A DNA stretch of 64,000 bases from Girardia tigrina (taxonomy: Eukaryota), in contig MQRK01255162.1 in assembly GCA_001938485.1 (NCBI GenBank), positions 1 through 64,000 of the forward strand, read 5' to 3'. Of this stretch, positions 18,422 through 20,300 are shown piece after piece. Below the pieces are notes generated by a model, which was given only the letters and a program-made list of their open reading frames with translations, was not told the origin of the DNA and ran no database searches. The position numbers and the translations under genes were made by a program. Within the stretch, counting starts at the first letter, position 1; the number at the start of each line of letters is the position of its first letter.

Positions 18422-18972
18422 GTCAACTTTTCATGTATTATTTATTTATTTTTATTACTTTCTTATGAGAAAGATATAATTAAATGAAATATTTCGAAAA
18501 AAGTAATCAGAAAATATATTTTTAACGAAAAAATATCTAAAATTCATGAAGTTTTGACTAATATAACCAAATTATTAACCCAAAGAATTTTAAAATTGCT
18601 TAAGTATCTTATGAAAATTATCTAATTGACTAAATTAGTAAATTCTAAATAAAAATTCTATATAGTATCGGAAAATATATTGGGTGGATTGATAATGAGA
18701 TATAATATATTGTTTTCCACAAAAAATTATTATTTTATTATTAAAAATTATTATTATTTTTTAATATATTAATATTAAAATATAATATTAAAATTATTAT
18801 TATTAAAATTATTAAAAAAAATTTTTTAATTTTAATCACTGTACTGTATTTTTTTATTTTTTAATATATTTATGTTTTTTAAAACCATGAAAAACACCTT
18901 AAAAACACCTTAAAAATCATCGAAAATAGGTAAAAACCACAAAAATTACAGAAAAAAGTGCAAAAATCAATA

Positions 18973-19126
18973 TTACACTCTCAGGGATCCCCTGTGCGGC
19001 CAGGCGGGCATACTTCTACGTAGTATCCCTGAGAAACTAGATTGGGTTCGATTCCGTCTCTAGGCTAAAGTACCCGAAAGCTAGTAGCTAGTAGTGTAGC
19101 CTAGGCAGCCTGACTAGGCTTAGTAC
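18973..19126 (+). mobile_element. 154-bp GC-rich insert flanked by 16-17-bp direct repeats (candidate ribozyme-headed short retroposon)
   Basis: AAGTGCAAAA(A)TCAATA at 18956-18972 and 19127-19142. Confidence 0.55.
18982..19076 (+). ncRNA. Degenerate HDV-like self-cleaving ribozyme
   Basis: P1 CAGGGAT/ATCCCTG; J1/2 hairpin CCTG..CAGG; imperfect P2 CGGGCAT/AGTACCCG; P3 ACT/AGT; L3 TCTACGT; P1.1 CT/AG; P4 CTAGA/TCTAG; J4/2 GCTAA carrying the catalytic-C equivalent. The first P1 pair (C-G) is atypical. Confidence 0.6.
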
Positions 19127-19829
19127 AAGTGCAAAATCAATAAGTTCACAATTTTGCAGTGTACTATATTGATGTTTTTTATATAATAGAGCTAAGCATA
19201 GGTCGAAGGTAGTAAGATATCGAAAATCTGATTGAACACATGGATAGTAACTCATATATGAATAGTCACATTCAATATCAACATTTTTGAAAAAATCGAT
19301 ACGTAGTGCTTTTTCGAATATATGCATATTATGTGTGCAAATATTATATTATAGATATCTATTATATTATGATATTATACTATGTTATCAACCAATATCG
19401 TATCAACCATTCAAAACATGACCATATCCAAGTTGATATCGTCATGCATTCATCGTGTCAACGTATTGTATCCATCATGTAAACGTATTGCATTCATCAT
19501 ATCAATACACAGCTGAACATGTAAAAAATACAGAAAATGCTGTATAATATATAAAGTACTAAAAGAACTATCTTATCAAACATTATCATCATGCTATCAA
19601 CCTTCAAATTTACCATATGAGACATCAAAATCACCATATCAACCATATCATCAACCATCAAATATACTTTATCAACCGTTAAAAGTACCATATTAAAATA
19701 CCAAATCACCTAATGAACAGCCATTTACATATAAAAACCTTCAAATCTACCTTAACAGCAATAAAAAGTGACCCTAATTGTATCAACCATTACCTTATTA
19801 ACCTTTCAAAAAGTGAACATTTTAATATT

Positions 19830-20300
19830 CCCAGAAAATTGAAAGCATGTTCGGCAATAAATCTCCAACGCCATTGGGATTGTGTTCGGATCTCATTTAC
19901 CAATATACATGTAATGGGTGTAACGCCACATACATTGGAGAGACTTCACGTCATCTCTGTANNNNNNNNNNNNNNNNNNNNNNCAATGAAGGTGGAAGTA
20001 ACATTGCAGGACATAGAAGACATTGTAAAGGAGATATAACTTCACAACACTTTAAAATTCTGTGTACTCAATTTAAAAATTATTGGGAGAGAGTGACATG
20101 TGAAGCGTTATATATATATCTTTGGATCCTAAAATTAACGTTCAAACTGCACTCTCTACAACTTTGTTGAGAGTTTTTAAATGGTGTACTGATTACGTAT
20201 TGATTACATAATCATTAACTGCACTATATAAGTAAATTTCGTTTGAAAAATCATTTGTTCTGACGATGACGATTAAACCGTCGAAATTAATAAATATTTT
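19830..20300 (+). mobile_element. Penelope-like element 3' remnant (GIY-YIG endonuclease plus pLTR)
   Basis: LIYQYTCNGCNATYIGETSRHL...HRRHC...FKIL...EALYI...PKINVQ, followed by a TATA box and a hammerhead. Confidence 0.9.
20255..20296 (+). ncRNA. Minimal type I hammerhead ribozyme (slightly degenerate)
   Basis: CTGACGA-T-GACG..CGTC-GAAA, palindromic ATTAAT stem III, AUA triplet, weak stem I. Confidence 0.7.

Follow-up and report, generated by a model that had tools for sequence, protein, structure and literature searches.

A SINE-like element of Girardia tigrina with a predicted HDV-like ribozyme head, its likely LINE partners, and their insertion at the endonuclease codons of Penelope-like elements

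LINEs that choose other transposons as targets and LINEs with ribozyme heads are both known: Tx1L inserts into a Xenopus DNA transposon, and Ruminski reportedly described RTE-clade LINEs with HDV-like heads in 2011. The closest described systems are compared here, from excerpts of the papers cited, with a SINE-like element of Girardia tigrina and its LINE partners. Among known ribozyme-headed short partners are the SIDEs (PMC3414825). The R2 SIDEs and R2/R1 hybrid SIDEs of Drosophila (PMC3414825, PMC3774820) resemble our element in being short and non-coding, with a 5′ HDV-like ribozyme, a LINE-like 3′ end, a site-preferring partner and a target duplication. They target 28S rDNA, whereas the SINE described here targets the endonuclease gene of Penelope-like elements; it also differs in its single-ORF APE LINE partner, its hundreds of dispersed copies and its relaxed specificity. 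The L1Tc/NARTc pair and the SIDERs of trypanosomatids (PMC4035085, PMC6765202) likewise combine an APE-RT LINE with a short partner and a 5′ HDV-like head, and they also tolerate C at +1 and make duplications of about 12 bp; unlike those systems, ours has no RNase H detectable by Pfam in the partner LINEs, has a Penelope hot spot, and has a SINE head that is not identical to the LINE head.

Bipartite RTEs with a short non-autonomous partner are described in PMC5786205, where the target-specific ribozyme-bearing clades named in the excerpt are R1, R2 and R4, with RTE not among them. These RTE-clade LINEs share with ours a single APE-RT ORF, the lack of an ORF1, a 5′ ribozyme and the short partner, while ours differ in having three C-terminal C2H2 fingers and no simple-repeat or poly(A) tail. 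PMC6765202 ties hammerheads to Penelope and HDV-like heads to RTEs. Target-specific APE elements lie in the Tx1 and R1 clades (PMC4640811), and transposons are among the known insertion targets (PMC4640811, PMC5035012). Like ours, the Tx1/R1-clade elements prefer a site in a multicopy repeat, another transposon included; ours appear to be of a different lineage, and they insert at codons that encode the catalytic motif of an enzyme from a retroelement. A Penelope-targeting LINE was not found in our literature searches, which had Repbase, most subscription papers and supplements outside their scope. One phrase match proved on inspection to be unrelated, and the excerpts of PMC8869645, PMC3846280 and bioRxiv 10.64898/2026.07.22.740005 held nothing further on such targeting. 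Ribozyme-headed short elements (SIDEs, NARTc) are already known; Penelope targeting by an RTE-like lineage did not turn up in these searches.

Here, we analyzed a 64-kb stretch of G. tigrina DNA (the window) at a locus that the original prediction had read as a 154-bp minimal ribozyme retroposon between 16-17-bp direct repeats. The overall explanation in which we have good confidence is a larger one: a retroposon of ~420 bp with a predicted ribozyme head that is likely copied in trans by RTE-like LINEs at a Penelope-matching motif. The window copy and its surroundings comprise the following features.

18890..18981, + strand: upstream arm of a host repeat that is AT-rich and at least about 2 kb long, delimited by blastn to the empty copies L052-L070 and to L002/L009
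18956-18972: first "direct repeat", within the upstream host-repeat arm
18958..18973, + strand: integration motif GTG-N10-T|AY, with GTG at 18958-60 and T at 18971; duplication from 18972
18972..18981, + strand: putative 5′ target-duplication copy (18972-18980), followed by a T that is probably non-templated; no 3′ copy remains
18982..19084, + strand: 5′-most 103 bp of a SINE-like, SIDE-type element that is non-coding and ~420 bp long when complete; the remaining ~315 bp are deleted
18982..19076, + strand: predicted ribozyme of the self-cleaving, HDV-like type, with the cut expected 5′ of 18982 and 19065 as candidate catalytic C
18982-18988/19025-19031: P1, first pair C1-G, read from sequence
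19005-19011/19070-19076: P2, with a single C-A mismatch, at 19072
19012-14/19022-24: P3, read from sequence
19015-21: L3 UCUACGU, carrying U20 and G25
19016-17/19032-33: P1.1 CU/AG, read from sequence
19037-41/19059-63: P4, read from sequence
19046..19056, + strand: GGTTCGATTCC, which resembles a B-box or T-loop, within the P4 loop; shared by 35/51 heads
19065: candidate catalytic C, within J4/2 GCUAAA
19085..19093, + strand: 9-bp filler at the deletion junction (the "CTAGTAG-rich tail"), a local repeat of the element end
19094..19767, + strand: downstream host-repeat arm; it contains the second "direct repeat" (19127-19142) as well as the AGCCTAG/CTAGGCT hairpin

Every HDV element named in the original prediction was located at 18982-19076: P1, P1.1, P2, P3 and P4 lie in nested double-pseudoknot order, and the L3 U/G pair, the P1.1 CT/AG and the J4/2 GCTAA are all present. 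This region is the sole match to our strict descriptor in the 64-kb window, and none of 20,000 dinucleotide shuffles of 18956-19142 passed it; the strict version was adopted because a loose one gave six chance matches in 697 kb. An Rfam search of the window gave no HDV match; the SINE loci likewise gave no match at the gathering score. Nested minimum-energy folding was not significant, with z 0.65 in the window and z from -1.06 to 0.65 over four heads, as expected because the HDV fold is a pseudoknot. The suspected damage to P2 is borne out: a G>A change at 19072, private to the window copy, breaks one pair that forms in 49/51 heads of the family. The first P1 pair, also flagged as atypical, does depart from the G1-Y descriptor, but C1-G is the family state (47/51) rather than a peculiarity of this copy. 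Judged on the sequence, the HDV-like fold at 18982-19076 is real.

The stretch 18982..19084 is 95-98% identical to most of 29 other fetched loci, all of which continue into a common body. In a search of the animal's own genome (1.43 Gb; 1,696 first-look candidates, 40 scored), the matches other than the window copy stop at about query base 129, equivalent to position 19084 of the window. Full copies are ~420 bp long and run from CAGGG to GAGGTGCAC, and 568 exact core heads were counted, a number inflated, like our other counts, by near-duplicate contigs in the assembly. The independent target duplications that had been proposed as a test were found: 35 among distinct loci, 7 to 15 bp long with a mode of 11 (29/35 at 10-12 bp), lengths that include the AC shared with the element end. 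Thirty loci were picked solely by their 3′ end: 16 begin precisely at C1, 2 begin within 5 nt of it, 5 are 5′-truncated, 5 are cut by a contig end and 2 gave no match, so that the exact start at C1 accounts for 16 of the 23 resolved SINE 5′ ends. We found no coding similarity to fetched proteins (blastx none better than E 4.6). The element is therefore SIDE-type in being short and non-coding, with a target duplication, a 3′ end that is LINE-like by eye and a ribozyme head. As a reading of the family, an HDV-like ribozyme heading a short non-autonomous retroposon linked to RTE-like LINEs is upheld. A second SINE body type (L184:177-570) has the same head and target and is 74% identical to the main family.

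The ribozyme was also assessed across 51 distinct heads, on which pairs were counted directly (alignment A1 has P1 out of register in three rows, which makes its P1 counts too low). Between 48 and 51 copies pair at each position of P1, P2 and P3; of the two P1.1 pairs, the first forms in 44 copies and the second in all 51, and the candidate catalytic C is retained in 49/51. The L3 sequence UCUACGU is present in 44/51 heads, giving the L3 U...CG with U20/G25, and J4/2 has the form C-N-A-A. Covariation among copies is seen in changes on both sides of three P2 pairs and one P1.1 pair; the shuffle control for this signal is inflated by the kinship of the copies. By eye, the P1.1 pair in the first 100 of the 568 heads is U-A in 79, C-G in 20, U-G in 1 and C-A in 0. 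The canonical G1-Y and CC/GG P1.1 of the HDV-like descriptor, which also places the catalytic C in J4/2 (PMC6326823, excerpt), are not found in the SINE, which has C1-G and mostly CU/AG. Excerpts of two papers bear on this departure: active trypanosomatid ribozymes were cleaved at C1 (PMC4035085), and very few positions are fixed in HDV-like ribozymes (PMC3774820). The Rfam RF02682 consensus has an L3 of UCUaCGU and AG after P1, and CU/AG thus has a precedent there. We predict that the SINE 5′ end arises by self-cleavage 5′ of C1 as an HDV-like ribozyme.

The window copy is surrounded by a host repeat. Of 19 ribozyme-free host copies (L052-L070), all 19 contain the hairpin as well as both 16-17-bp repeats, so the repeats, once taken for target duplications, are host sequence lying within a larger element; the GTG of the integration motif is part of the upstream one. 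The CTAG-rich tail and the AGCCTAG/CTAGGCT hairpin do exist as described, but the former is filler, missing from full SINE copies and empty host copies, and the latter is host sequence; the window tail was found in 0 of 29 other loci. The presence of repeats and hairpin in the sequence speaks for a minimal ribozyme retroposon of 154 bp that has 16-17-bp duplications and a 3′ hairpin of its own, but the empty host copies refute it as one unit, and we give it practically no credence. The motif at 18958..18973 scores 8.5 bits and fits the motif derived from 24 non-Penelope insertions (below). We place the 5′ duplication copy at 18972..18981 because L009 and L002, full elements of other subfamilies, lie at this very host site with duplications of 11 and 13 bp. 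Target-primed reverse transcription begins at an element's 3′ end, and for this reason we infer that the 3′ loss was a later deletion, with the 9-bp filler templated. The window copy is likely a dead, 3′-deleted 5′ fragment of the ~420-bp family.

Several further observations concern this repeat. It is AT-rich and contains tandem units that vary as well as long stretches rich in ACCATCAA (18890-19767, L052-L070), and no class match was obtained for it. It forms a secondary hot spot for SINE as well as LINE, and a LINE end lies within the same host region in L119. Just downstream, 19826-20170 is a remnant of the GIY-YIG region of a different Penelope family (CNGCNATYIGETSRH), broken by an assembly gap; its GIY-YIG motif has no LINE or SINE interruption, and Pfam gave no match on a 45-aa piece of it.

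Some SINE copies have a longer element with a similar 3′ tail upstream. This partner is a 3.85-kb LINE with a single ORF encoding APE, RT and C2H2 fingers and without ORF1. The full copies L099 and L169 (3,840 and 3,850 bp) begin at G1 of HDV-like heads. At least three families exist: LINE-A (L092, L099), LINE-B (L169) and LINE-C (L168, L181). Their heads, at whose G1 all three families start, differ in stem sequence yet still pair, with a P4 base of CTAGA/TCTAG in common; those of L092, L099 and L168 have G1-Y and CC/GG, as does L169 with one P1.1 mismatch. The LINE-C head scores 33.3 bits against Rfam RF00094 (E 0.026; gathering score 50). An intact 1,145-aa relative (P0001), 95% identical, carries APE, RT and three C2H2 fingers. 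LINE-A and LINE-B are 60.5% identical in RT and use the same target site. In a quick-method RT tree of 51 relatives, built without an outgroup or named clade references, both sit in a branch of three-finger relatives, apart from DUF6451-bearing ones. We infer that the partner LINEs are RTE-like from their anatomy, taking RTE-type motifs and a presumed CFDP2/DUF6451 link as further guides. Searches of solved structures placed neither the partner LINE nor the Penelope-like target in a clade, and a metagenome scan yielded only two distant loci (28% and 31% identity).

No parent with the head and body of the SINE was found among the three LINE families: the sole blastn match between SINE and LINEs is a 41-nt P4 stretch of LINE-C, and the likeness of the 3′ tails is by eye. 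As far as these sequences tell, the SINE does not look as if it arose from any of the LINEs found here by simple deletion. The LINEs are its likely drivers, given the common tail, target, duplication and tandem stacks. In the main SINE subfamily, GGTTCGATTCC at 19046-19056 is close to the LINE-C P4 loop. In L099, L169 and L181, a small hairpin with a GCUAGCAA-like loop lies just 3′ of the ribozyme and has a look-alike in the SINE body; it is possibly a protein-binding or translation element. The 5′ regions of L099 and L169, both mutated copies, show no obvious in-frame AUG before the first APE motif, which fits the non-AUG or IRES-like initiation that has been proposed for HDV-headed LINEs. 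Long open frames of 1,600 aa were considered as fusions and rejected as products of assembly gaps. Open frames flanking L035, L047, L048 and L031 are unrelated to the finding; they include an LTR-type integrase (Pfam rve), and some presumably resemble Polinton-type genes.

Many SINE and LINE copies lie in one codon string, CHGCQNSYIGETNRH. The locus L221 has this target in an uninterrupted frame, with an RT (RVT_1 E 6.5e-8) followed by a GIY-YIG domain (Pfam E 2.9e-4, with a score of 21.5 just below the cut-off of 22.6; Atlas hits 0.96 GIY-YIG). Because an RT is followed by GIY-YIG in this frame, the target is, on sequence grounds, classed as a Penelope-like element. The IGET codons follow 302/786 LINE 3′ ends and 136/499 SINE 3′ ends (the 499 being slightly filtered and approximate), and a Penelope-type site was seen by eye at 15 of 30 unbiased LINE ends, variants and stacks included. 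Viewed from the target, interruptions were seen at 34 half-sites among the first 100 of 1,421, and 16 of 17 that were fetched are LINE or SINE. Of 29 Penelope copies selected by their RT (query copy left out), 14 are interrupted at one base, every junction being different, and 13 of these 14 interruptions are recognizable LINE/SINE family members. Penelope-site insertions are in sense orientation. Contigs bridging a Penelope-SINE junction come from runs X1 and X8, which have organism codes A and C, and empty Penelope sites from runs X1, X8 and X6; a LINE end at the site is present in X6, where record 22 was left out of the bridging count because it extends only 28 letters beyond the junction. 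Head-to-tail SINE/LINE stacks at a single site, with a duplication between each, were observed in L002, L004, L022, L118, L126, L139, L163, L169 and L187.

Over half of the LINE/SINE insertions fall outside Penelope, and these have a common motif, RGTG-N10-T|AC. The scoring matrix was built from 24 such sites, namely 28 "off-target" rows minus L074, L098 and L191 (Penelope flanks) and L097 (a false duplication); G-14 is present in 20 of the 24, T-13 in 19, G-12 in 19 and T-1 in 22, while the A and C columns are fixed by the selection pattern and are thus not independent. The best match to GTG-N10-T|AC is the Cys...Tyr-Ile-Gly codons of the Penelope GIY-YIG endonuclease; this site scores 15.5 bits, a value that no leave-one-out score and none of the 127,570 positions in the window reaches. 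From the off-target matrix by itself, 3-21% of insertions would be expected at Penelope, and 27-38% are seen; part of the Penelope enrichment may therefore follow motif abundance.

Three other readings of these patterns have to be weighed. The uniform 5′ end could come from RNA polymerase III initiation, with the HDV fold an inherited, inactive relic. GGTTCGATTCC, which may be an acquired Pol III signal or a coincidence, would suit this, as would a weak A-box-like J1/2 and the atypical C1 and CU/AG; but 16/51 heads lack the box, copies of this kind start at C1 too, and compensatory P2 and P1.1 changes separate the subfamilies. Nor is the element recognizable as a tRNA-derived SINE, since it has a B-box-like sequence only, with no A-box regex match and no ARAGORN tRNA call. 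Moreover, C1 ribozymes cleave in trypanosomatids (PMC4035085, excerpt), and RF02682 provides the same L3 and the AG after P1. Pol III initiation thus seems to us improbable. Even less probable is that insert-bearing Penelope copies were amplified by Penelope itself, the hot spot then representing few events. Full-length SINE junctions can indeed be identical between copies, and near-duplicate contigs exist, yet there are many 5′ truncation points and differing untemplated additions, the insertions involve at least three LINE families, several SINE subfamilies and several Penelope families, and filled copies do not cluster on the flank tree, where filled and empty copies are mixed (15 changes versus 16.3 when shuffled, in a poorly resolved tree). 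Amplification by Penelope is already largely refuted.

A more serious contender is an incidental hot spot, arising from a short, relaxed motif and abundant high-scoring GIY-YIG codons, with no adaptation to Penelope or reliance on its transcripts. We counted 12,152 empty CxxC-x3-YIGET sites, most insertions lie elsewhere, and the matrix would explain up to the ~21% given above if every site reached the best score. Of 30 LINE ends, apparently just one lay in the most abundant Penelope family, which by eye makes up about half of the first 100 rows. Weighing against it, Penelope sites make up only ~4% of the core-motif sites (~335,000 genome-wide, extrapolated from 15 per 64 kb in one window) and take 27-38% of the ends, an excess of roughly 7- to 10-fold on this one-window extrapolation. 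In addition, about half of one family's RT-bearing copies are hit, LINE families only 60% identical in RT retain the same site, and the motif letters are those of the Cys and Tyr codons, whose spacing is kept in several Penelope families. We regard an incidental hot spot as a real but somewhat doubtful possibility. The alternative, which we hold tentatively and with rather more inclination, is that the RTE-group three-finger LINE lineage and its ribozyme-headed SINEs are specialist parasites of Penelope, which would read the GIY-YIG Cys/Tyr codons, insert within the catalytic motif, ride on Penelope transcripts and be freed by the HDV ribozyme.

For a ribozyme-headed retroposon copied in trans, the life cycle is most likely SIDE-like. 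A copy would be co-transcribed from a Penelope element in the same orientation or from any transcribed site; given the sense orientation, Penelope transcripts could supply the co-transcript. The ribozyme would then cut 5′ of C1 and free an RNA whose 5′ end is defined, as happens for R2 and L1Tc, and the LINE protein would bind the ~50-nt 3′ tail common to LINE and SINE. The APE would nick at the motif, probably aided by the C-terminal C2H2 fingers, with the terminal AC of the RNA pairing with the primer, and a second cut about 9-11 nt downstream would give rise to the duplication. Such an insertion would split the Penelope endonuclease at Tyr-Ile-Gly and restore a usable site, which would explain the tandem LINE/SINE stacks. 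The window copy would represent a secondary-site insertion in the host repeat, followed by 3′ loss through deletion with templated filler.

An RTE-like lineage whose bipartite motif peaks at the catalytic codons of a retroelement would add a new route of target choice, and would show plainly how one transposon can disable another. It would also offer a small testable system: one protein of 1,145 aa, for which an intact natural relative exists, a template of 420 nt and a defined motif, with natural ribozyme variants available (C1-G, and CU/AG versus CC/GG). If the specialist reading is true, this lineage lives in Penelope as R2 does in rDNA, and the endonuclease gene has been knocked out in about half of one Penelope family.
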